Positions 6,855 to 24,740 of a stretch of DNA of 33,186 nucleotides are shown here, in pieces. Source of the stretch: an uncultured Saprospiraceae bacterium (lineage in GTDB: Bacteria > Bacteroidota > Bacteroidia > Chitinophagales > Saprospiraceae); NCBI GenBank assembly GCA_964586035.1, contig CAZPHZ010000001.1, forward strand, positions 1 through 33,186, in the 5' to 3' direction. A program made the translations under genes and the position numbers. Below the pieces are notes generated by a model. That model was not told the origin of the DNA. It saw only the letters and a list, made by a program, of their open reading frames with translations, and made no database searches. Positions within the stretch are counted from its first letter, which is position 1; each line of letters begins with the position of its first letter.

Positions 6855-8078
6855 TCAGAACATCAAAGCCAGCAAAAAAGTCAGGACGGTGGCGGCGAAT
6901 CCTACCATGAAAATATTGTAAGAAATTGAAAGGTAGTTGTATTTTTTGTCGAGCACCTTCCCGAGATTGTAGAGGTCGCGGGTCATGTTGCCGTAGAGCA
7001 GCTCGCTGTCATTGAACATTTCGTCCATCAGCTCCTCATATTTTTCCATTTTCAGGGAAACGAAATTCCCAAAGAACACGATGTTTTTCTTGGCCTCGTC
7101 AATGGGCGTGCCTTCGTGAATCAAGGAGGTGACTTTAGGGCGTGCCGCCAAAACGGCAAAAATCAGGGAGGTGAGTCCCGTCACCACAAAAATGATGGCA
7201 GGCATTAAAATGGCGGGATTAGTCTCCGTCATGTTGCGGTAAGAAATCACAGAGATGATTACGGAAATCAGAATGGCGTTCACGCTAATCATGATGTTCG
7301 CCTTATTGTCAGCGATGGAGCTCAGGTTGATGTGGTTCCGATAGTTGGTACGGAAGAAAGTCTGTGTGCCACTGGCAGTCCGGCGTTCCTGATTACGGAT
7401 TTTCCGGTCGTCGAGAGGGTCAACTCTTTTAACTTTTTTTGCCTTTTGCTTTTCCAGCCGGTCTTTCAATGCCACAAAATGAGCGGCAGTCACCGGCTCG
7501 CAGGTTATCTTGCCGTGGGCGGTGTAAAATCGGGCGTTTAGCAATTGCTGGGTTTGGTATTGCTCCCATTCTTCTTTTGAATAATGGAGGTTGAGCAGCA
7601 ACTCCCGTTCGATGCGCAGCAAAGGTGAATTTTCGAAAAAACTCTCCCCGAAATACACAGACCTCACGGCATCGGACAACAACTGCCCAACTGTAGATTT
7701 TGGGGTTTCCCAAAGAATCGTTGCCTTCAAAACAGCGAGGATGGCTCTCTTTTTTCCTGGAGAAAATTGATGGGCATCGAAGAATTTCGTGGCCAATTCG
7801 AGACTCTTTGGCGCAGGGTCCTGATAGTCGAAGAGGAACCCCGCATTTATAAACCAGGCTGCCAGACCGGCCGTTTCCCAATCTCCTGAGGTACTGCCGT
7901 TTGCTTCGGCAAATGTGTTGACAGCTTTGGCGATTTCCATTGTTTGCCGGTAGGAATGGAAAAGGAGTCGTGGGTCAATTTTTTGATTAAAAAGATTGAG
8001 GACATACTGCTGGGCAAGAGCCGAAATATCGGTCTGGGCAAGCATCGGCTCGGAGGTGGGATGTAATTCTTGGCTCAT
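6855..8078 (-). CDS. HD-like (apparently degenerate) N-terminal domain fused to a DUF5706/Pycsar-effector-type 3-TM C-terminal module
   Basis: The C-terminal half has FFRTNYRNHINLSSIADNKANIMISVNAILISVIISVISY plus two further TM helices. I recall this signature from DUF5706 (PycTM-like). The N-terminal helical domain aligns by eye to HD phosphohydrolases but reads FHSYRQT and WFINAG where H..H and HD are expected. Confidence 0.75.
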   Translation of the reverse strand: MSQELHPTSEPMLAQTDISALAQQYVLNLFNQKIDPRLLFHSYRQTMEIAKAVNTFAEANGSTSGDWETAGLAAWFINAGFLFDYQDPAPKSLELATKFFDAHQFSPGKKRAILAVLKATILWETPKSTVGQLLSDAVRSVYFGESFFENSPLLRIERELLLNLHYSKEEWEQYQTQQLLNARFYTAHGKITCEPVTAAHFVALKDRLEKQKAKKVKRVDPLDDRKIRNQERRTASGTQTFFRTNYRNHINLSSIADNKANIMISVNAILISVIISVISYRNMTETNPAILMPAIIFVVTGLTSLIFAVLAARPKVTSLIHEGTPIDEAKKNIVFFGNFVSLKMEKYEELMDEMFNDSELLYGNMTRDLYNLGKVLDKKYNYLSISYNIFMVGFAATVLTFLLALMF

Positions 8079-11364: not shown

Positions 11365-13272
11365 ATGGCTGACATAATTCAGCTCTTGCCCGAATCTATT
11401 GCCAATCAGATAGCTGCTGGAGAAGTCGTCCAGCGGCCGGCGTCGGTGGTGAAAGAATTATTGGAGAATTCGATCGATGCGGGAGGTACGAGCATAAAGC
11501 TCATCGTGAAGGAAGCCGGCAAGACGCTAATTCAGGTCATCGACAACGGCTGCGGCATGTCGGAAACCGATGCCCGTCTTTGTTTCGAGCGGCACGCCAC
11601 CTCAAAAATCCGTGAGGCAAAAGATTTGTTTTCCATACGCACGATGGGTTTCAGGGGGGAGGCTCTGGCCTCAATCGCAGCGATTGCTCAGGTGGAGATG
11701 CGCACGCGCCTCCATAATAACGAGCTGGGCACACGGCTTGTAATCGAAGGCTCACAAGTGCTCGTTCAGGAGCCTTGCCAATGCACAGCAGGCACTAATA
11801 TTCAAATTAAAAACCTTTTTTACAACGTGCCCGCCCGGCGCAATTTCCTGAAATCCAACGCTTTGGAAATGCGCCACCTCCTCGATGAATTTCAGCGGGT
11901 GGCGCTGGCCAACGTCGATGTTTTTTTCTCCCTTCACCACAACGGCACCGAGATATTCCATCTGCCCCCCGGCAAATTGCGGCAGCGCATCGTCGGAACT
12001 TTTGGCAAGGCTGCCAACCCCAAATTGGTGAAGGTGAAAGAAGATACTGATGTCATCAAAATTTGCGGATACATCGGCAAGCCGGAGTTTGCCCGTAAAA
12101 ACCGGGGCGAACAGTTGTTTTTTGTCAACCAGCGATTCATAAAAAGCGGTTACCTCCACCATGCCTTGATGTCGGCTTACGAGGACCTTATTCAAAAAGA
12201 TACCTACCCCATGTACGTGCTTTTTATTGAAATGGACCCGGCCAGAATCGACATCAATGTGCACCCCACAAAACAGGAAATAAAGTTCGACGACGAACGG
12301 CTCGTTTACAATTATTTGAAAGTGGCAGTGCGCCACGCACTTGGGCAGTACAGCATCATGCCCACGCTGGATTTTGACCAGGAGACCAGTTTTTCACCCA
12401 CTCAAAATTTTGGATTGCCATTCGAAGTACCGGCGCAGGAAACTTTTGAAAAAGAGCTCTCTGGTACCGGCAAAAACGAATCGCAGGGAAACGCCAATGC
12501 TTCCGGATTTGATGGTAGCAACAATGGCGGACAGGGAACCCCGCAACGCGATTGGCGAAAACTGTTTGAGGGTCTCGACGAGTTGGAAGAAGAAATGGGC
12601 AGTGACGCCCAAGATGTGGAAGGAACCATCACTCTGCAAAGTGGCATCTCAGACAACAATGAAATGGACGGGGGCAATACCTCATTTACCAAAACCCAAA
12701 AAGAACCCTACCAGATCCACAGCACATATATAATCAGCCATATCAAGTCCGGCTTTTTGCTGATAGATCAGCAGGCGGCACACGAACGCATTCTCTTTGA
12801 AAAATACCTCGAAGTACTGGACAACCGGCAGGCTTTCACCCAAAAAGATCTTTTCCCAAAAACGATAAACCTGCCACCAGCCGATGCAGCTTTGATGCAG
12901 GAGATTTTACCGCATATCAATTTACTCGGTTTCGACATCCAACCGTTTGGAAATGGCGCTTTCGTCGTCCAGGGTATACCGGCCGAGCTGGTGGGCCGCC
13001 AGGATGAAGTGAAGCTCATTGAAACGTTGCTTTACCAATACAAGCGCAACGTAGAATTGAACCTTAATATCAGCGAAAACCTCGCCCGGTCGATGGCTCG
13101 CAGTTCTGCCATCAAACGCGGGCAACCACTGGAAGTGCAGGAAATGCGCGAACTTATTGACAAGTTGTTTGCGTGCGCCATGCCTTTCAAAAGCCCTTCG
13201 GGACGCAACTGTTTTATAACCTACGAAATGGAAGCGCTGGAGAAAAATTTCAGGCTTGGCCGGGACCTCTAA
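11365..13272 (+). CDS. mutL: DNA mismatch repair protein MutL
   Basis: N-terminal GHKL ATPase motifs IANQIAAGEVVQRPASVVKELLENSIDAG and DNGCGM. C-terminal dimerisation domain with the QQAAHERILFE motif. Confidence 0.97.
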   Translation: MADIIQLLPESIANQIAAGEVVQRPASVVKELLENSIDAGGTSIKLIVKEAGKTLIQVIDNGCGMSETDARLCFERHATSKIREAKDLFSIRTMGFRGEALASIAAIAQVEMRTRLHNNELGTRLVIEGSQVLVQEPCQCTAGTNIQIKNLFYNVPARRNFLKSNALEMRHLLDEFQRVALANVDVFFSLHHNGTEIFHLPPGKLRQRIVGTFGKAANPKLVKVKEDTDVIKICGYIGKPEFARKNRGEQLFFVNQRFIKSGYLHHALMSAYEDLIQKDTYPMYVLFIEMDPARIDINVHPTKQEIKFDDERLVYNYLKVAVRHALGQYSIMPTLDFDQETSFSPTQNFGLPFEVPAQETFEKELSGTGKNESQGNANASGFDGSNNGGQGTPQRDWRKLFEGLDELEEEMGSDAQDVEGTITLQSGISDNNEMDGGNTSFTKTQKEPYQIHSTYIISHIKSGFLLIDQQAAHERILFEKYLEVLDNRQAFTQKDLFPKTINLPPADAALMQEILPHINLLGFDIQPFGNGAFVVQGIPAELVGRQDEVKLIETLLYQYKRNVELNLNISENLARSMARSSAIKRGQPLEVQEMRELIDKLFACAMPFKSPSGRNCFITYEMEALEKNFRLGRDL

Positions 13273-13380: not shown

Positions 13381-14229
13381 TTACATTTTCTTCCACTCCG
13401 CAATAGACTCGGTGTTCATCCGCTCGTAGTCCTTATTCCCAGCTTCGGTGGCCAGTTGTTTGGATTTTTCGGCCACTTTGATTGCCTCGGCATAACTCCC
13501 CATTTTAGCAAGGCAAAGAGATTCCTGACGAAGGGTCCAGAAGCGGGGATTCATCACGTTGGCTTTGTGCAGCCATTCATGGGCCTGCTTCATGTCTTTG
13601 TCCGCCTCCATGTAATAGCGTCCGGCGGCGTAGTAATCGTTGGCACTGGGTCCGGCCATGGTGCTTTTGATAGCAGCACTCACAGCCTCGTCAGTGCTCA
13701 GGCCCACCTCGAATTGAACAGCAGTTCTTTCCCAAATAAGCGAAATATTGCAAGAGTTGTTGCGAAGCGACCCCACATCGATGAGAAATGTCTCAACAGT
13801 AAAAGGCAATTCCTGTGGCTTAACCTTGAAGCGGACGGCTTCTTTGGCAGCATCGTATTTCTCGGGAGTTCCCCAATTATCACTATCGGTGTAAAATATT
13901 ATGTCCCACTCATCGGGATTGGGAACTGTGTAAAGTGCGTAGGTGCCGGCCTTGAGCTCCTGGCCCCCGATGTTGACCTTTTCGCTGAAAGTAATGGTGG
14001 TGTTTTCATTGGCACCGGTGCGCCACAAATCTCCCCAGGGCAATAGCCCGCCAAAAATGGTGCGGCCTTTCACGCCGGGCCGGCTATATTCTACCGTGAT
14101 GTCAGTGAGGCCGGCTTTTTGTGTCATTTTACAAAATGGACTTGGTGCCGGTGTCTGGATTTGTGCAGTGGCGGTTTGTAAAACAGCCAACACTGCCAGT
14201 GATGTGAGAGTAAGCAGTACTTTTTTCAT
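13381..14229 (-). CDS. Secreted DUF2911 domain protein with C-terminal TPR-like helices
   Basis: Signal peptide MKKVLLTLTSLAVLAVLQTATAQ. DUF2911-typical TVEYSRPGVKGRTIFGGLLPWGDLWRTGANENTTITF. Start is set at ATG 14229, which gives the signal peptide, rather than 14430. Confidence 0.85.
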   Translation of the reverse strand: MKKVLLTLTSLAVLAVLQTATAQIQTPAPSPFCKMTQKAGLTDITVEYSRPGVKGRTIFGGLLPWGDLWRTGANENTTITFSEKVNIGGQELKAGTYALYTVPNPDEWDIIFYTDSDNWGTPEKYDAAKEAVRFKVKPQELPFTVETFLIDVGSLRNNSCNISLIWERTAVQFEVGLSTDEAVSAAIKSTMAGPSANDYYAAGRYYMEADKDMKQAHEWLHKANVMNPRFWTLRQESLCLAKMGSYAEAIKVAEKSKQLATEAGNKDYERMNTESIAEWKKM

Positions 14230-14365
14230 CTGAAATTGATTTAAGTTAAAATTGAGTGTGAAAATAGCATTTTGTGGAAATTTGGAGCACAGCCCGATTT
14301 CAATTAACGTAATTATAACGATTTCGGAAGCTGCGAAAACCAAGGTCATTTCCGGCTGATTTTTA

Positions 14366-14373
14366 TACCTTTG
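14366..14373 (+). promoter_or_regulatory. Candidate -7 box TACCTTTG for dnaX
   Basis: Matches the Bacteroidota sigma-A consensus TAnnTTTG, 74 nt upstream of ATG 14447. No clear -33 TTG. Confidence 0.4.
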
Positions 14374-14446
14374 CCCACCTGGCGGGCAGCGAAAAATCTT
14401 TTTCATTTCAAAGAATTCCCTGCCCGGCACACACCGTCTGCCGCCA

Positions 14447-16306
14447 ATGAGTTACATCGTTTCCGCACGAAAATACCGCCCGCAACGCTTCGCCGATGTC
14501 GTTGGCCAAAGCCATGTGTCGCAGACTTTGAAAAAGGCATTTCAGACCGACCACCTCGCCCATGCCTTTTTATTTTGCGGCCCGCGTGGCGTTGGCAAAA
14601 CATCTTGCGCACGGATATTGGCAAAGGCGCTCAACTGCCGCAGCTTGACCAAAGACCATGAACCTTGCGGAACCTGCGATAGCTGCATTTCTTTCGATGA
14701 AAATGCTTCCTTTAACATCATGGAACTGGATGCCGCCTCCAATAACAGTGTGGACCACATCCGGGCATTGGTCGAACAGGTGCGCTTCCAACCCCAGCAG
14801 GGCCATTACAAAGTTTATATTATCGACGAGGTTCACATGCTCTCCTCATCGGCTTTCAATGCCTTTTTGAAAACGCTGGAGGAGCCGCCACCTTACGCCG
14901 TTTTTATATTGGCCACGACCGAGAAACATAAGATAATCCCCACGATACTTTCGCGGTGCCAGACTTTCGATTTCAAGAGGATTCAGGTAAAAGACATTAC
15001 CGCTCATCTCGAAAATATTTGCAAAAAGGAAAAGATAAAGGCGGAAAAGGAGGCCCTCCATGTGGTCGCTGTCAAAGCCGACGGTGCGTTGCGCGACGCA
15101 CTCTCGATATTTGACCGGATGGTGAGTTCTTTTGGGAAAAACATCACCTATGCCGATGTCGCCGCCAACCTGAACATCCTCGATTATAGCTATTACTTCC
15201 GCTTTACCGAGGCCCTCTTGGCACAAGATTTAGCCCAGGTTATGCTCATTTTTGACGAGGTGATACGGAATGGATTCGATGGCGATTTGTTCATCAACGG
15301 GCTGGCGGGCCACCTTCGCGACCTCCTTGTGTGCAAAGATGATGGAATGAGCACCCTGCTCGAAGTTACCGATTCACTGAAAGAGCGGTACCATCAACTT
15401 TCTGGCCTGGCACCCACTTCCTTTCTGCTCACCGCTCTCAACATTTGCAATGACTGCGACGTGAATTACAAAATGGCCCGGGACAAACGGCTGCACGTAG
15501 AAATGGCTCTGATAAAGTTGTGCTATATTTCGCAAGCTGTTCAACTCGCCAACAACAGCAAGCCTGCACCCCTACCGGAAAAAAAAACTCCTGATGTAAA
15601 ATCTGCCACAACACCCGCCCCGCCAGTACCTCCGAAATCATCTTCTCAAGTACAAATTACACAGCCGCAACCTCCGCTCACTCCGCCCAAAGACTCTCTG
15701 CCCGAAAATGAACCCGCTCCTCTTTCCGCTGAAGAGCCGGCACCAAAGGACGTTGAAAAAGTGGAAGAAACGCCTGACCCGGGATATGAAAAAAAACCGG
15801 CACCCAATGCCGAAGAAATCTCCAAAGTGCCATCGCTTCGAAAGCCAAATACCGGGAAGATACCCAAAATCCAGTCCCTTACCGATATGCGTGCCGAGGT
15901 GAAAGACAATGAAACAAATGGCTTAAAACTAAAAGAGGATTTATCTCAGGTATCTCTGGATACCGCCTGGCAGAATTACACGGAATCCATCGACCGGGAT
16001 TCTGTAAAAATAGTATTGAAAAACGCCGGAGCCAAGATGACCGAACAGGGAATAGTCGTCAAGGTAGGTTCCGCGCTGGCGGAAAACACCATCCGTCAGG
16101 AGTCCGGTCTCATGGAGTTTTTGCGTGAAAAATTGCAAGCACCGCGCCTTTCTATGAAAATTATCATCGACACTTCGAAAGCACCAGTTGTAAAAGCTCC
16201 TCCCAAAAGGCTTACTGACAGCGAAAAATATTGGGGTATGAAAAGCATAAACCCTCTCGTAGACGAAGTGCGGAAACGCTTTGATTTACAGATAGACGAA
16301 ACTTGA
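14447..16306 (+). CDS. dnaX: DNA polymerase III subunit gamma/tau (DnaX)
   Basis: ARKYRPQRFADVVGQ, Walker A GPRGVGKTS, zinc module CGTCDSC, Walker B IIDEVHML and sensor SRCQ. A Pro-rich linker and a C-terminal tau-type region follow. Confidence 0.97.
   Translation: MSYIVSARKYRPQRFADVVGQSHVSQTLKKAFQTDHLAHAFLFCGPRGVGKTSCARILAKALNCRSLTKDHEPCGTCDSCISFDENASFNIMELDAASNNSVDHIRALVEQVRFQPQQGHYKVYIIDEVHMLSSSAFNAFLKTLEEPPPYAVFILATTEKHKIIPTILSRCQTFDFKRIQVKDITAHLENICKKEKIKAEKEALHVVAVKADGALRDALSIFDRMVSSFGKNITYADVAANLNILDYSYYFRFTEALLAQDLAQVMLIFDEVIRNGFDGDLFINGLAGHLRDLLVCKDDGMSTLLEVTDSLKERYHQLSGLAPTSFLLTALNICNDCDVNYKMARDKRLHVEMALIKLCYISQAVQLANNSKPAPLPEKKTPDVKSATTPAPPVPPKSSSQVQITQPQPPLTPPKDSLPENEPAPLSAEEPAPKDVEKVEETPDPGYEKKPAPNAEEISKVPSLRKPNTGKIPKIQSLTDMRAEVKDNETNGLKLKEDLSQVSLDTAWQNYTESIDRDSVKIVLKNAGAKMTEQGIVVKVGSALAENTIRQESGLMEFLREKLQAPRLSMKIIIDTSKAPVVKAPPKRLTDSEKYWGMKSINPLVDEVRKRFDLQIDET
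15579..15599 (+). other. A9 tract plus immediate stops in both alternative frames inside dnaX (candidate slippage/frameshift site)
   Basis: CCG GAA AAA AAA ACT gives A9 at 15579-15587. The -1 frame reads AAC TCC TGA (stop 15592-15594). The +1 frame reads CTC CTG ATG TAA (stop 15597-15599). Confidence 0.5.
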
Positions 16307-16386: not shown

Positions 16387-17874
16387 TCAACCTTTCCGTT
16401 TCGCCATATCCCGTTCAATCATTGTTTGTATCTGATCAACATGCAGGTTTTTTGCAATGATGACGCGGTCGGGGTCCAAAATATAAATCTCTGGAGTGAC
16501 ATCGACAAAATAGGTAGCATATATGGCCTTGTTCGTGGGGTCGAAAACGTTTGTCCAGGTCATGTGGTCTTTGGCGATGTAATCCGTCCACTTCTTATGG
16601 TCCGTATCGACGGCGATTCCATAAACATCCACGCCTTTAGATTTCCATTCCTTGTAAAAATCGACGAGCAGCGGCGTTTCTTTGGCGCAGTGCTCGCAGT
16701 CGGGATTGTACATATACACGATGATGTAAGGTGCCTTGAGGTCGTAAATGGAGCGCAACACGCCGTTGGGGTCTTTGGCGGTCACATTCGGACCTTTTTC
16801 CCCGACGAGGCTGGCAGCCATTTCGTGGGCGCGTAGTTGCAGACTGTAGATTTCCGTAGAATCCGACCAGAATGCACGATCGTACGTGAAGTAATTTTGA
16901 ATCATGTGGACAAAAACAGCCTGGGCGTCCATTAGTGTGGACTCGGTGGGCTCATAACTCAGCGTAATCCAATTTGCAAAAAACTTGAACAATTCGGGAG
17001 ATTTCAAAGTGCGGTCCACAACAAAAGAAGCGGCAGCATTGATGGAGTCGGGCTGTTGCGGCGTCAATTCTTTTATATAGCGTTTCAGCTTATTGTAAAG
17101 CACCGGTGTATAGAGAAGACGCTCGTCATTGAAGTTGACATCATCCCAGAATTGCATTCGGTAGAGGTAGGAGTACCGCGCCGTATCTAGCGTGCCATCG
17201 GGCTTGGTGACATTGCGGAGGTCGGGATTCTGCCCCGCTTTTTTGAACGAAGTGAAAAAAGTGTTCGGGTATTTTTTAAAAATATCCGCTAAAAAAGCCT
17301 GGCGCTCATCCAACAGTTGGTCCTGTTCTGCTTTCAGCTGTTTGTACGCCGGTGTGTTTGGTGCGGCAGATCTCATTTTGGAAGCATTGGCCTGAAATTT
17401 TGGACGTTGACTATTTTCGAATTTCAGCGCCCGGTAGAGAAGCTCATTATCCTGGCTGCCCTCCACCTGCATTGCACCGACGAGGTTGTTCAGATTGGTC
17501 TTCATGGTGAAAGTCTGGTCTTTGTCAATCAGCATCTGAATGTTGCGGTTGCCGGGGAAAACGACGAAGAACATTCCAGGACGGAATGGATCCTTGTGTT
17601 TGAATACCATATTACCGGAGGCATCGATTGAGGAGGAGTCGGCGCGGTAGTTTTGGTCGGCAAATGCGCCGTACAAGTATGCCATTCCGGTGTTGAAACC
17701 CTCCACTTGCACCCGGATGTCCGGCGACTCGCACTCCTCTTTGTAATTTTTAGTGGATATGACCGGTCCTTCCACATAGTTTGATGTGGCCGGAATTTGG
17801 GCCTGCGATGACGATTCTGTGCCGTTGCAGGCGTAAATAAAAGATACGATGGTAATAACGACGAATAGTCTCAT
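16387..17874 (-). CDS. Thioredoxin-fold lipoprotein (TlpA/AhpC-TSA-like C-terminal domain with CxxC; DUF5106-like N-terminal region)
   Basis: Lipoprotein signal MRLFVVITIVSFIYAC. C-terminal thioredoxin fold with YNPDCEHCAKETPLL (CEHC). Confidence 0.85.
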   Translation of the reverse strand: MRLFVVITIVSFIYACNGTESSSQAQIPATSNYVEGPVISTKNYKEECESPDIRVQVEGFNTGMAYLYGAFADQNYRADSSSIDASGNMVFKHKDPFRPGMFFVVFPGNRNIQMLIDKDQTFTMKTNLNNLVGAMQVEGSQDNELLYRALKFENSQRPKFQANASKMRSAAPNTPAYKQLKAEQDQLLDERQAFLADIFKKYPNTFFTSFKKAGQNPDLRNVTKPDGTLDTARYSYLYRMQFWDDVNFNDERLLYTPVLYNKLKRYIKELTPQQPDSINAAASFVVDRTLKSPELFKFFANWITLSYEPTESTLMDAQAVFVHMIQNYFTYDRAFWSDSTEIYSLQLRAHEMAASLVGEKGPNVTAKDPNGVLRSIYDLKAPYIIVYMYNPDCEHCAKETPLLVDFYKEWKSKGVDVYGIAVDTDHKKWTDYIAKDHMTWTNVFDPTNKAIYATYFVDVTPEIYILDPDRVIIAKNLHVDQIQTMIERDMAKRKG

Positions 17875-21109: not shown

Positions 21110-22975
21110 TCAATGCGCATTCACCCAGTTTAGCATGGGTTGCCACGCAACAGTCTTTGCATTGGTGGCGATAAAAGAATCAATGTGACCAAAGTCGAGA
21201 GCAGCCTGGTCGTCGGGGTAGAGTTTCGCTATAACGCTTTCCATCTCAGCATTGGGGAAATAGCTCAATCCGAATGTTGACAAATCGCCGAACCCTCCTC
21301 CCGGAGAAAAGTTGAGAACCGGCACCGAAATGTCGGCGAAATGATCATCGAAAGGTGAGTCCGCATAATCTGTCATCAGGGTATAATAATCAACAAAATA
21401 CTTAGTCGGCTCATAAGTTGCAGCAGATTCTGCAAAGTCATACCACTGTTCGTTGGTGAGAAACTGCAAACCCACAGGGAAATTATTTTCGAACACACCG
21501 GCGAGGAAATGGAAAGGAATTACTCCGTACTGTTGGTAGGTACCAAAATAGAGAGCTGTCTGCTCGTTGGTGAACCCGGGTACTATTGGAGAATCTCCGT
21601 CAGGATCTGTTTTGGCAAGGTTGCCAATAAGTGAAAATCCTATAAATGACTCGTAAGAACCATTATTCCATGCATCCTGGTTTGAAAGTAGCTCGCCAAT
21701 CAGGACGTTATTGTATTCCTCATTATCGCTCTTTATACCGAGATCTATAGCAATGTACCCTTTTGCATGTCTGACCACTTCTTCAAGAGTAGTTTCATGA
21801 TTCAATACAGCGTATCCGGTGGTTACACCACTGCTATACCCTGCCATATCCATTTTGTCAAGTACATCACTGGTGAGAAAGCGGGCGATTCTGGCTACGG
21901 CCATTGCCGTGCGCAGGTCGGTGGTGTTTTTGCCAAGGCCCCAATCTTTCATAAAGCCGAAATCCGTTTCATCTGCGGGCACCAGAGTCCATGCCTGGTC
22001 AATGCCCCAAAAGTCCACGTCGTTTTGTGCCATGTAAACGGCGATGCCGAAGTCATTGGGAGTAGTAGCCGAGTAAAGGCCTGGGAGGGTCATGCCCACA
22101 AAGTCCTTGGCATCTCCGTGCTGGTAAAACAGGGCCTTATCCGTGATGATTGGCTGATACGGTGCTGCTTCTTTCACCACCCGGTGGATGCCGATTTTGT
22201 CATGTGGGTCTGAGCCAACAGCCACCTCGAATTTGTAATGGACGATGTTGCCGCTGATTACCTGGCGTTCGTAATTCATCAGGGTGACTGAAGTAGTGGG
22301 AATGTCCACATTGGCCAATGTGGGCCAACCGGCTTCCGCGATGAGTTGGGAAGCAATGGAATAGGGGTCAACGGGTGTGTCGGCGATGATTTTCGTGACG
22401 ATGTCCTTTTTAATTTTATCAGACATGCAGGGTGGGGGCAGGTTGCCATCGCAAAGCTTATAGCAGGGTTCGTAAACCGGCCCTGCTTTAATGACCTCCC
22501 CGCAGGGGTCCTGAAAGCGGTTTTTCACTTTGTAGGCCGGCCATTTTTTGAAACCGCTGGCGTACATCGAGACGATGGGGTTTCCTCCGGTCCATTTCCA
22601 TTTGGCGATGTTGGAGCGGTCATTCCCTCCGTCATTCTCTTCCTGCGGTTCCTGCCAGCTCCACAGAATGTCTTCTCTGTCGTAAGCCTCCACAAAAAGG
22701 AGGGCATAGACGAGGTCTTCATCGCTGGTGGGATCCCCGACGGATTGCAGTTCTTTTTCCGTCAGCGTCCCGTCATCATTAAGGTCGAACAGCCTCGCAG
22801 CGTATTGCTCGGTTGCCGCCGGGTTGGGCAGGTCGCTGAGGTCGTTCAGCGTCAGTGCTGTGTACTGGGAAGATAGCACTTCTGGAGCGTTTTTTAGTTG
22901 GTCTTTCTGACAGGAACTGATGGCCGTGGCGGCCAGAAGAATGGCCAGAAAGAACTTCATGCTAAAATTTTTCAT
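21110..22975 (-). CDS. Lipoprotein, putative alpha/beta-hydrolase fold (GxSxG GYSSG) with N-terminal EF-hand-like loop
   Basis: Lipobox AATAISSC. DLNDDGTLTEKE loop. Candidate oxyanion YQHGD, nucleophile elbow MAGYSSGVT and late FGHIDSF motif. The fold assignment is inferred from motifs only. Confidence 0.7.
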   Translation of the reverse strand: MKNFSMKFFLAILLAATAISSCQKDQLKNAPEVLSSQYTALTLNDLSDLPNPAATEQYAARLFDLNDDGTLTEKELQSVGDPTSDEDLVYALLFVEAYDREDILWSWQEPQEENDGGNDRSNIAKWKWTGGNPIVSMYASGFKKWPAYKVKNRFQDPCGEVIKAGPVYEPCYKLCDGNLPPPCMSDKIKKDIVTKIIADTPVDPYSIASQLIAEAGWPTLANVDIPTTSVTLMNYERQVISGNIVHYKFEVAVGSDPHDKIGIHRVVKEAAPYQPIITDKALFYQHGDAKDFVGMTLPGLYSATTPNDFGIAVYMAQNDVDFWGIDQAWTLVPADETDFGFMKDWGLGKNTTDLRTAMAVARIARFLTSDVLDKMDMAGYSSGVTTGYAVLNHETTLEEVVRHAKGYIAIDLGIKSDNEEYNNVLIGELLSNQDAWNNGSYESFIGFSLIGNLAKTDPDGDSPIVPGFTNEQTALYFGTYQQYGVIPFHFLAGVFENNFPVGLQFLTNEQWYDFAESAATYEPTKYFVDYYTLMTDYADSPFDDHFADISVPVLNFSPGGGFGDLSTFGLSYFPNAEMESVIAKLYPDDQAALDFGHIDSFIATNAKTVAWQPMLNWVNAH

Positions 22976-23216: not shown

Positions 23217-23234
23217 GTTTTTTTTTGGGGGGGG
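23217..23234. repeat. T9G9 homopolymer junction
   Basis: Nine T (23217-23225) directly followed by nine G (23226-23234), inside the 380-bp noncoding gap 22976-23356. Confidence 0.95.
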
Positions 23235-23356
23235 GAGGGCTTGTTTCATGAGGGGATGCATGCCGGCAGTAGTCGCCATTCCTGGCGGCGTTCCGGGCAA
23301 TCAGTTTGATATTTTGGGCGGGTCGCTCCGGTCTGAAAAGAATTTACATTGGGATG

Positions 23357-23743
23357 CTATTGTTGGGAACTGTTAACGGCAGTATCGGGAGGCGTGAGTA
23401 GCGGCTGCACCGGAAGTGAATCATCAGGAGCAATAAATTCAGGTTTCTGTGGTCTTTCAGGCAGAGGCGGAAGGCCAGCGGTGTCGCGGTTCAGGCGGGC
23501 ATTGGCGACGATTGTAGAGTCCACGATGGCAGTTGCACGGTCCATGACGTTTTTCCTGCACTTCATTTCCCAGTTTCTTTTCCAGGTGTTGAGTCTTTTC
23601 GTGACCCTTTCCTGAATCACATCTTCTTTTGTTATGCCTGGTTCCTTTTTCGCACAGGAGGGCAGGCCAACGCATAAGAGCACCAATGCTCCCTCTAAAA
23701 AATACTTAATGAGTGATTTCGTGATTGAGGCCATGTGTATCAT
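23357..23743 (-). CDS. Hypothetical lipoprotein
   Basis: Lipobox LLCVGLPSC with a Pro-rich C-terminus. It overlaps the upstream gene by 4 nt (23740-23743). Confidence 0.6.
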   Translation of the reverse strand: MIHMASITKSLIKYFLEGALVLLCVGLPSCAKKEPGITKEDVIQERVTKRLNTWKRNWEMKCRKNVMDRATAIVDSTIVANARLNRDTAGLPPLPERPQKPEFIAPDDSLPVQPLLTPPDTAVNSSQQ

Positions 23744-24026: not shown

Positions 24027-24740
24027 CTACCAGTCTTTGGTCACTTTTTTGTGTTTTGCCTGCACCTTGCGGAGCTTTTGCTGCACCTTCTGCTCCTCCT
24101 GGTCCATTATTTCGAGCAACTGCCGGGCCTCTTCCTTACTGAGATTCTGCGGCTGTTCCTGGTTTTTCTGGTGCTCCTGATTTTGCTGCTGTTTCTGGTT
24201 TTGTTGAGGGTCATTTTGATCTTTCTGTTGGTCTTTCTGCTGCTGGTGTTGATCGTTTTGTTGCTGTTGATTGTCCTTTTGCTGTTGTTGCTGTTGTTGT
24301 TTTTGCAATTTTATTTGCTGCAGGGCCATCGCCAGATTTTTTTTGGTGCCGAGATCGTTGGGGGTGAGGCGCAGCGCATTTTTGTAAGCTTCCACACTTT
24401 TGTCGTATTCCTGTTTGAGAAAATGGGCATTTCCGAGGTTGTGAAAAGCCTTGGCCTTTATCTGATTATCGGTTGCAGATTCGGCAGTTTCTTCATAATG
24501 CTTAACCGACTCATCGTATCGCTCCTGCTTGTATATGGCATTTCCGAGGTTGAAAGTGCCCTTACTCGATCTTTTTTTTTCGAGTGCCCGCCGGTAGCTG
24601 TCCTCAGCCTTCGAAAAGTCTTGGCCGTCGTAGTTTCTGTCACCTTTTCGGAGCCAGTTATGCGCAGATTGGGCGCTGAGTACCTCTGGGGCAATTAGTA
24701 ACCAAAGCATTAAAATTTTCAACGAATGCATTTTGTCCAT
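24027..24740 (-). CDS. TPR protein, BatC-like, with Gln-rich low-complexity region
   Basis: Signal/anchor, then TPR repeats (AEDSYRRALE, GNAIYKQERYDESVKHYE, NLGNAHFLKQEYDKSVEAYKNALRL), a Q-rich tract and a C-terminal SKEEARQLLEIMDQEEQKVQQKL as in BatC-type proteins. Confidence 0.75.
   Translation of the reverse strand: MDKMHSLKILMLWLLIAPEVLSAQSAHNWLRKGDRNYDGQDFSKAEDSYRRALEKKRSSKGTFNLGNAIYKQERYDESVKHYEETAESATDNQIKAKAFHNLGNAHFLKQEYDKSVEAYKNALRLTPNDLGTKKNLAMALQQIKLQKQQQQQQQKDNQQQQNDQHQQQKDQQKDQNDPQQNQKQQQNQEHQKNQEQPQNLSKEEARQLLEIMDQEEQKVQQKLRKVQAKHKKVTKDW
24143..24308 (-). repeat. CAA/CAG-rich low-complexity coding repeat (Gln-rich tract)
   Basis: Encodes QQQQQQQKDNQQQQNDQHQQQKDQQKDQNDPQQNQKQQQNQEHQKNQEQPQ. 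The plus strand reads TTGCTGTTGTTG-type runs. Confidence 0.9.

Follow-up and report, generated by a model that had tools for sequence, protein, structure and literature searches.

The dnaX gene of an uncultured Saprospiraceae bacterium raises the question of whether a short DNA polymerase III gamma subunit is produced beside the full-length tau product and, if so, by which route. The gene is located in a stretch of 33,186 nucleotides (nt), hereafter called the window, which corresponds to positions 1 to 33,186 of contig CAZPHZ010000001.1 (GenBank assembly GCA_964586035.1). An earlier note, made from the letters of the window and a list of its open reading frames (ORFs), had pointed to a run of nine A's (A9) in dnaX and proposed it as a slippage site for gamma. 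Three routes to gamma are documented, namely a -1 ribosomal frameshift with a Shine-Dalgarno-like (SD-like) element and a stem-loop in Escherichia coli, slippage of the RNA polymerase in Thermus and proteolysis in Caulobacter (PMC5009743; PMC1088944; bioRxiv 10.1101/2022.11.10.516041). The analysis reported below indicates that the A9 run is very probably a programmed slippage site which gives rise to a short gamma beside tau.

The A run at the end of the clamp-loader core

The full-length, tau-type product of dnaX is encoded at 14447..16306 on the plus strand, stop codon included, and appears in the ORF list as a protein of 619 amino acids (aa) and 69 kDa, obtained by reading through the A9 run in frame 0. 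The NCBIfam equivalog PRK14971, 'DNA polymerase III subunit gamma/tau', covers residues 2-617 of this protein with 725 bits (cut-off 685) and the E. coli tau/gamma structures are matched at 5e-76. The Pfam families PF13177 (DNA_pol3_delta2), PF22608 (DNAX_ATPase_lid) and PF12169 (DNA_pol3_gamma3) are all recognized, which corresponds to the AAA+/lid/domain III architecture.

The region 15575-15599 reads CCG GAA AAA AAA ACT CCT GAT GTA AAA, where codons 377-381 encode P E K K T. The slippery run itself, G AAA AAA AAA C, occupies 15579..15587 of the plus strand and extends over E378, K379, K380 and the first base of T381. It is one of just three A or T homopolymers of at least 9 nt in the window, whose G+C content is 50% and in which runs of 7-8 are numerous. 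If the RNA polymerase slips on the A9:T9 hybrid, a ladder of transcripts would be produced. Transcripts carrying A9 (or A12 or A6) would be translated into the complete tau of 619 aa. Those carrying A10 or A7, in the same manner as a -1 ribosomal shift, would lead to the TGA located two codons on at 15592..15594 (plus strand) and to a product of 382 aa and 42.9 kDa ending in ...PEKKNS. Those carrying A8, with one fewer A, or A11 would lead, as would a +1 shift, to the TAA at 15597..15599 (plus strand) and to a product of 383-384 aa ending in ...PEKK(K)LLM. The predicted short products (382-384 aa, ~43 kDa, compared to 69 kDa for tau) would be gamma-like and reduced to the AAA+ core, domains I-III, alone, without the linker and the C-terminal domain. 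The coordinates that the earlier note had given for the run, its assignment to codons 378-381, the outcome of both slipped readings and the two stops were all confirmed from the sequence.

The placement of the run at the boundary between core and linker, also proposed in that note, is confirmed by the end of the Pfam domain III match and by alignment to the E. coli gamma core. The clamp-loader core, common to the predicted gamma and to tau, comprises domains I-III and extends over approximately aa 1-374 (14447..15568, plus strand), the Pfam domains spanning aa 21-365. Residues 1-359 align with residues 1-357 of the crystallised E. coli gamma construct (1-373). The match to domain III (PF12169) stops at aa 365, which is position 134 of the 143 positions of the profile, and the A9 run starts 13 codons past this end. 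The run (codons 378-381) is therefore situated at the core/linker boundary, directly after the clamp-loader core. The tau linker that follows (15587..15862, plus strand) is Pro-rich in translation, poorly conserved and variable in the alignment, and is missing from the predicted gamma. The conserved tau-specific C-terminal domain (aa 473-618; 15863..16303, plus strand), delimited by BLASTP and by profile positions 397-614 of PRK14971, is present in the frame-0 product only. In E. coli tau, these two regions are responsible for binding to the helicase and the polymerase; by analogy, the C-terminal domain of the window may take part in polymerase or helicase binding.

The gene call recorded for this contig (P0051) encodes a protein of 528 aa whose start is located ~91 codons downstream of 14447. 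Since homology to E. coli DnaX already begins at the ATG at 14447 (MSYIVSARKYRPQ versus MSYQVLARKWRPQ), the automatic start call of P0051 is too short.

Conservation of the run and of both stops

Relatives were collected by scanning one genome per species, which produced 61 loci, 58 of them from Bacteroidota, with 43-81% protein identity. These 58 loci belong to Saprospiraceae, Lewinellaceae, Aureispira, Haliscomenobacter and a few Cytophagales. An A9 or A10 run is found at the homologous position (codons 366-393) in 51 of the 58 dnaX loci, for which a protein identity of 50-81% is also given. None of the 58 dnaX genes contains a further A run of at least 9 nt, and just four A or T runs of 9 nt or more occur in the other 263 kb of the loci, all of them outside the dnaX ORF. 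Once anchored by the run, the sequences are essentially unalignable over 45 nt in both directions, with at most 0.4 bit per column. Within these flanks, the exceptions are the G preceding the run (1.5 bits), the C following it, the TGA of positions +5 to +7 and the A of position +12.

The stops are conserved together with the run. Among the 45 single-ORF loci, 89% have a stop in the -1 frame within two codons, a proportion that is 18% for control codons taken from these genes; a stop in the +1 frame follows within eight codons in 89% as well, compared to 38% at control positions. Both alternative frames are closed within eight codons in 89% of these loci (16% at control positions), and closure of both within three codons is observed at just 3.3% of the control codons of these 45 related dnaX genes. 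The -1 stop is kept by means of a synonymous third-position T: the codon following the one in which the run ends is CCT for 17 of 19 prolines (31% elsewhere) and GCT for all 7 alanines (25% elsewhere). The +1 stop arises from an xTA codon followed by A, and GTA is used for 7 of 9 valines at this place, compared to 25% elsewhere. The nearest relatives (89-91% protein identity) display an identical motif, in which a synonymous change from GAT to GAC leaves both stops intact. The alignment across Bacteroidota that the earlier note had called for thus reveals joint conservation of the A run and of both stops from Saprospiraceae and Lewinellaceae out to Cytophagales. Judged by this comparison, the site of the window is under nucleotide-level purifying selection acting on the run and on the stops. 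The ratio of 91 AAA to 2 AAG among the Lys codons within the run was dropped as evidence, the loci having been chosen by the presence of the run, which renders the argument circular.

In a neighbour-joining tree of the N-terminal domains, the run is found on all deep branches, with several substitutions between A9 and A10 and two independent losses. The run was lost in one Saprospiraceae clade (L015, L021, L022, L024, L025 and L026) and in the separate lineage L020. The peptide is altered as well in the loci without a run, from EKKT to PTKT, and the sites read PTKTANF or ANRTAQL. In our reading of the DNA of the L015 clade, the +1 frame is open for more than 25 codons once the run is lost. Production of gamma by proteolysis, by analogy with Caulobacter, is a possibility in the loci that lost the run.

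The locus L033, which originates from a glacier-stream metagenome-assembled genome, displays a TAG ~7 codons past the run where the near-identical L030 and L031 have GAG. A link of this early stop to the run was rejected, as it is a point change from GAG to TAG that truncates frame 0 and is unrelated to the run. The TAG reflects a nonsense polymorphism or else an error in sequencing.

Frame of the tau C-terminal domain among relatives

The frame that carries the tau C-terminal domain is not constant in the family. It is frame 0 in most loci, the -1 frame in L048, in L078 and in the Cytophagales L053, L054 and L058, and the +1 frame in L076 and L077. Each of these layouts leaves a single frame open, and stops are soon met in the two others. 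A single ORF that gives tau by default characterizes the window, and 45 of the 59 tree sequences (58 relatives and the window) have it. In the two-ORF relatives, the downstream ORFs are homologous to the C-terminus of tau (BLASTP, E down to 8e-25); comparison of the C-terminus of the window to such ORFs gave 33-34% identity over ~150 aa, with E values of 8e-25 and 2e-24. Mixed transcripts with inserted and deleted A's explain all three layouts, which a one-directional ribosomal shift does not. According to Antonov et al. 2013, differing shift directions within one family are a criterion for transcriptional realignment (PMC3711429).

L076 and L077 come from two JGI samples and carry an A10 run at ~2630 of the locus. 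Frame 0 ends there after EKKNASLKSAG and the C-terminal domain appears to lie in the +1 frame, so that tau would require the loss of one A or the gain of two. We have seen no description of this layout for dnaX. L011 was rejected as a two-ORF example since it is ambiguous, with N's between the A run and the C-terminal domain; L078, which has the same motif and comes from a different data set, was used instead.

Probable slippage in transcription and its alternatives

The inference of the earlier note that a recoding strategy operates here is supported comparatively, by the conservation of the run and of the dual stops and by the position at the domain boundary. The choice between the mechanisms of E. 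coli and Thermus had been left open, and the data now favor slippage of the RNA polymerase of the Thermus type. From the sequence comparison we infer that slippage occurs and takes place during transcription, and that gamma accumulates and is functional. Slippage of the RNA polymerase on the A9 run is probably the main route to gamma.

Transcription is favored over translation because of the length of the run, the base that follows it, the lack of stimulators, the conservation of the +1 stop and the variable frame of tau among relatives. The run is held at 9-10 nt and is therefore longer than a frameshift heptamer. The base after the run is C in 75% of the loci, in place of the G of A_AAA_AAG, so that the AAG codon is absent from the A site. 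No SD-like element was found in the 25 nt upstream of the run of the window, and such an element is present in 2 of 52 loci, compared to 12% at control positions. No stable or conserved hairpin was found on either side, the mean z of the family being ~0 on both. The 55 nt downstream of the run in the window have a minimum free energy of -0.5 kcal/mol (z = +1.5), and the downstream mean z of the family is 0.07 with no locus below -2. The stimulator model of E. coli was consequently rejected, as neither its SD-like element nor its stem-loop is present.

A number of observations weigh against slippage in transcription. No RNA run containing the window was found. Four wastewater metatranscriptomes contain the relative L003, as shallow consensus contigs, and one metatranscriptome contig starts directly after the run. 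In another relative, a 7-kb RNA contig covered ~50x crosses CTG-A9-CGGCTGACCTGA with a templated A9, so that the unslipped form must be at least the most frequent single one at that site. Neither the full-length protein nor any of the four predicted slipped products was found by exact matching against a collection of 15 billion proteins. Most of the two-ORF variants were taken from metagenome assemblies, in which the length of a homopolymer may be wrong, and a second coding A9 of the window, located in a TPR gene described below, indicates that such runs are tolerated elsewhere in the organism. The loci share ancestry and the percentages given above are not counts of independent events; despite this kinship, we argue that conservation of the run is selective because the flanks are saturated. 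Finally, the phase of the heptamer A_AAA_AAA (GA A_AAA_AAA C) would permit a -1 shift, a stop in that frame being reached two codons on, and translation could contribute.

This last point leads to the alternative in which gamma would be made in translation from a homogeneous mRNA, the ribosomes shifting by -1 on A_AAA_AAA or sliding on the Lys-encoding A run. In E. coli dnaX, the slippery site is A_AAA_AAG and the stop is located one codon further on (PMC5009743), and this bare site, deprived of stimulators, permits ~14-16% frameshifting in vitro (bioRxiv 10.1101/2025.10.02.679949). Sliding of ribosomes on iterated AAA codons is documented as well (PMC4363877) and could reach both frames. We nevertheless consider this alternative unlikely. 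Neither the window nor the family offers an SD-like stimulator or a downstream stem-loop, the run is followed by C and not by G, and A_AAA_AAA is reported to be far less shift-prone than A_AAA_AAG in E. coli (PMC5009743). The 9-10 A's that are selected exceed what a heptamer needs, and the presence of the essential tau domain in the -1 frame of some relatives and in the +1 frame of others is left unexplained by a shift in a single direction.

Recoding could also be absent altogether. The run would then merely encode a conserved Glu-Lys-Lys-Thr where the linker begins, AAA and GAA being the preferred codons of the lineage, and the stops would be by-products of Thr-Pro-Asp. Elsewhere in these genes AAA indeed accounts for 71% of Lys codons and GAA for 69% of Glu codons, the peptide EKKTPD is conserved in many loci and gamma itself is predicted from sequence. 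Such usage nevertheless predicts at least one G within the run in about two thirds of the loci, and wherever EKK is encoded, neither AAG nor GAG breaks the run; the loci that lack an intact run have a changed peptide. The residues past the run vary (T/N/S/K, then P/A/N/L, then V/L/I/G), but A at the first base, T at the third base and the xTA-A pattern are retained, in the midst of a linker that is otherwise unconserved. Moreover, the two-ORF relatives cannot make a full-length protein without a shift. Taken with these facts, the explanation is quite improbable.

A feature of the DNA itself, either a slipped-strand hotspot switching dnaX on and off between cells or assembly artefacts in run length, is most improbable: homopolymers do vary in DNA and are error-prone in assemblies, relatives differ by A9 versus A10 and the Logan contigs of DNA run X1 (~3x depth) break at the run, but dnaX is essential and its off state would be lethal, most A9/A10 differences are frame-keeping base substitutions (ACN to AAN) and not indels, a 93%-identical relative in DNA run X4 has no indel across the run, the motif of L078 matches that of L011 from another data set and the L076/L077 layout was recovered from two samples.

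Comparison with known dnaX systems

The closest counterpart of the window is the dnaX gene of Thermus thermophilus, in which transcriptional slippage takes place on an A9 run and either alternative frame meets a stop close by (Larsen et al. 2000, as cited in PMC1088944 and PMC5009743). As far as these two papers describe the Thermus gene, both systems have tau encoded in a single ORF through a sense-strand A9, stops near the run in both alternative frames and gamma as the truncated product. The local motifs are similar too: GAG-A9-GCCTGA in Thermus (PMC3711429 Fig. S3), CGG-A9-CTCCTGA in the window and GG-A9-GCCTGA in L011 and L078. The window differs from Thermus by its phylum, Bacteroidota (Saprospiraceae), and by a predicted gamma that is reduced to the bare core. 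For Thermus, the papers that cite the original work report measurements of slippage and of a 1:1 ratio of the products; for the window, slippage is a prediction.

Two-ORF dnaX genes were described with an A10 run in Flavobacterium johnsoniae, F. psychrophilum and Cytophaga hutchinsonii and with an A9 run in Capnocytophaga ochracea (PMC3711429 Suppl. Fig. S3). The same layout was reported in Chlorobi (Chlorobium) and in Coraliomargarita, and assigned to transcriptional realignment (PMC3711429). The window shares with these genes the domain boundary, the A9-A10 run and the proposed mechanism. The Cytophagales L053, L054 and L058 and the Saprospiraceae L048, L078 and L076/L077 display exactly this layout: translation in frame 0 terminates past the run and yields gamma by default, and a shift is required for tau. 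The window, in contrast, has a single ORF and tau is its default product.

The predicted gamma of the window, like gamma of E. coli, corresponds to the core cut by a stop located just past an A-rich slippery site, with an in-phase A-rich heptamer and a -1 stop within two codons. Unlike E. coli, the window is devoid of an SD-like stimulator, of a stem-loop and of AAG, and its +1 frame is closed too. Gamma of E. coli ends at residue 431, ~58 residues into the linker, whereas the predicted gamma of the window is shorter and would end at ~380. Caulobacter crescentus also obtains two forms of DnaX from one gene (bioRxiv 10.1101/2022.11.10.516041), but its gamma is generated post-translationally by partial proteolysis with ClpXP and involves no slippery sequence.

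A broader reading may tentatively be drawn from these comparisons, which we regard as possible and rather doubtful. The run would slip both ways in Saprospirales so efficiently that the C-terminus of tau could sit in any frame, and the layouts giving tau by default, by insertion (-1) or by deletion (+1) would be interchanged by single-base changes. The G-A9-(N)CCTGA motif, found in Thermus and Chlorobi too, would be ancient and not convergent, and gamma would be minimal, formed of domains I-III without a linker.

Other runs and genes of the window

The earlier note had cautioned that other A runs exist in the window. This is correct for 15789-15796 and 24572-24580, neither of which was seen to be conserved in relatives. 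The A8 run at 15789-15796 lies within the dnaX linker (Y E K K P), and runs of A7 or longer are found near this place in few relatives. As read from the sequence, no near stop follows in the -1 frame and the other alternative frame is open to 15902; this run is unlikely to be programmed. The second coding A9, at 24572-24580 on the minus strand, is part of a BatC-like TPR gene (24027-24740, minus strand), where it covers the codons L E K K R S and is followed by a -1 stop three codons on. It is absent from 14 distant metagenomic relatives (30-45% identity), which have ALEEKQRP, ALEKEKE or ALDKKPD instead and are a weak control. This run is probably incidental and would cost expression if the RNA polymerase slips on A9. 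Lastly, a T9 followed by a G9 is found at 23218-23235 (C9A9 on the minus strand) in a gap of ~380 nt between the minus-strand ORFs 23357-23743 and 21110-22975, whose function is unknown. It may represent a promoter tract subject to phase variation, or else an oddity of the assembly.

The neighbors of dnaX include mutL (11365-13272), a DUF2911 protein (13381-14430, minus strand) and a thioredoxin-like protein (16387-17874, minus strand), with a pseudouridine synthase, a class A penicillin-binding protein and glycosyltransferases nearby. This neighborhood suggests an ordinary chromosome with no sign of a mobile element. tRNA genes were sought for the tRNA-Lys complement and none was found in the window.

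An unrelated protein of 407 aa, encoded at 6855-8078 on the minus strand, matches in its C-terminal 120-150 aa the transmembrane (TM) module of Pycsar effectors (Pfam PycTM, 5e-27; PADLOC PycTM, 1.5e-16) as well as 2TM effector models. Its N-terminal 250 aa gave no family matches. No cyclase gene adjoins it, the neighbors being a Zn peptidase and a DUF937 protein. Judged by these matches, the protein may be an orphan defence effector or one with a novel sensor.

Significance

Poly-A recoding of dnaX is already published for Bacteroidota, in its two-ORF form (Antonov 2013, PMC3711429). No description was found in the literature of the single-ORF, dual-stop, Thermus-like form across Saprospiraceae, nor of an interconversion of single-ORF and two-ORF dnaX among close relatives. 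If the proposed slippage is true, gamma production of the Thermus type would also apply to a Bacteroidota family that is large and abundant in the environment. Combined with the published two-ORF cases of Flavobacterium, Cytophaga and Chlorobi, it would make slippage on poly-A, and not the frameshift of E. coli, the common route to gamma in the superphylum. The annotation of single-ORF dnaX genes carrying the motif should then mention a second product of ~43 kDa, and a label of pseudogene or split gene should be avoided for two-ORF variants of dnaX. The switching between architectures in closely related lineages would also constitute a natural series in which to approach the slippage efficiency that is needed and the reason for a clamp-loader subunit devoid of the tau-specific part.

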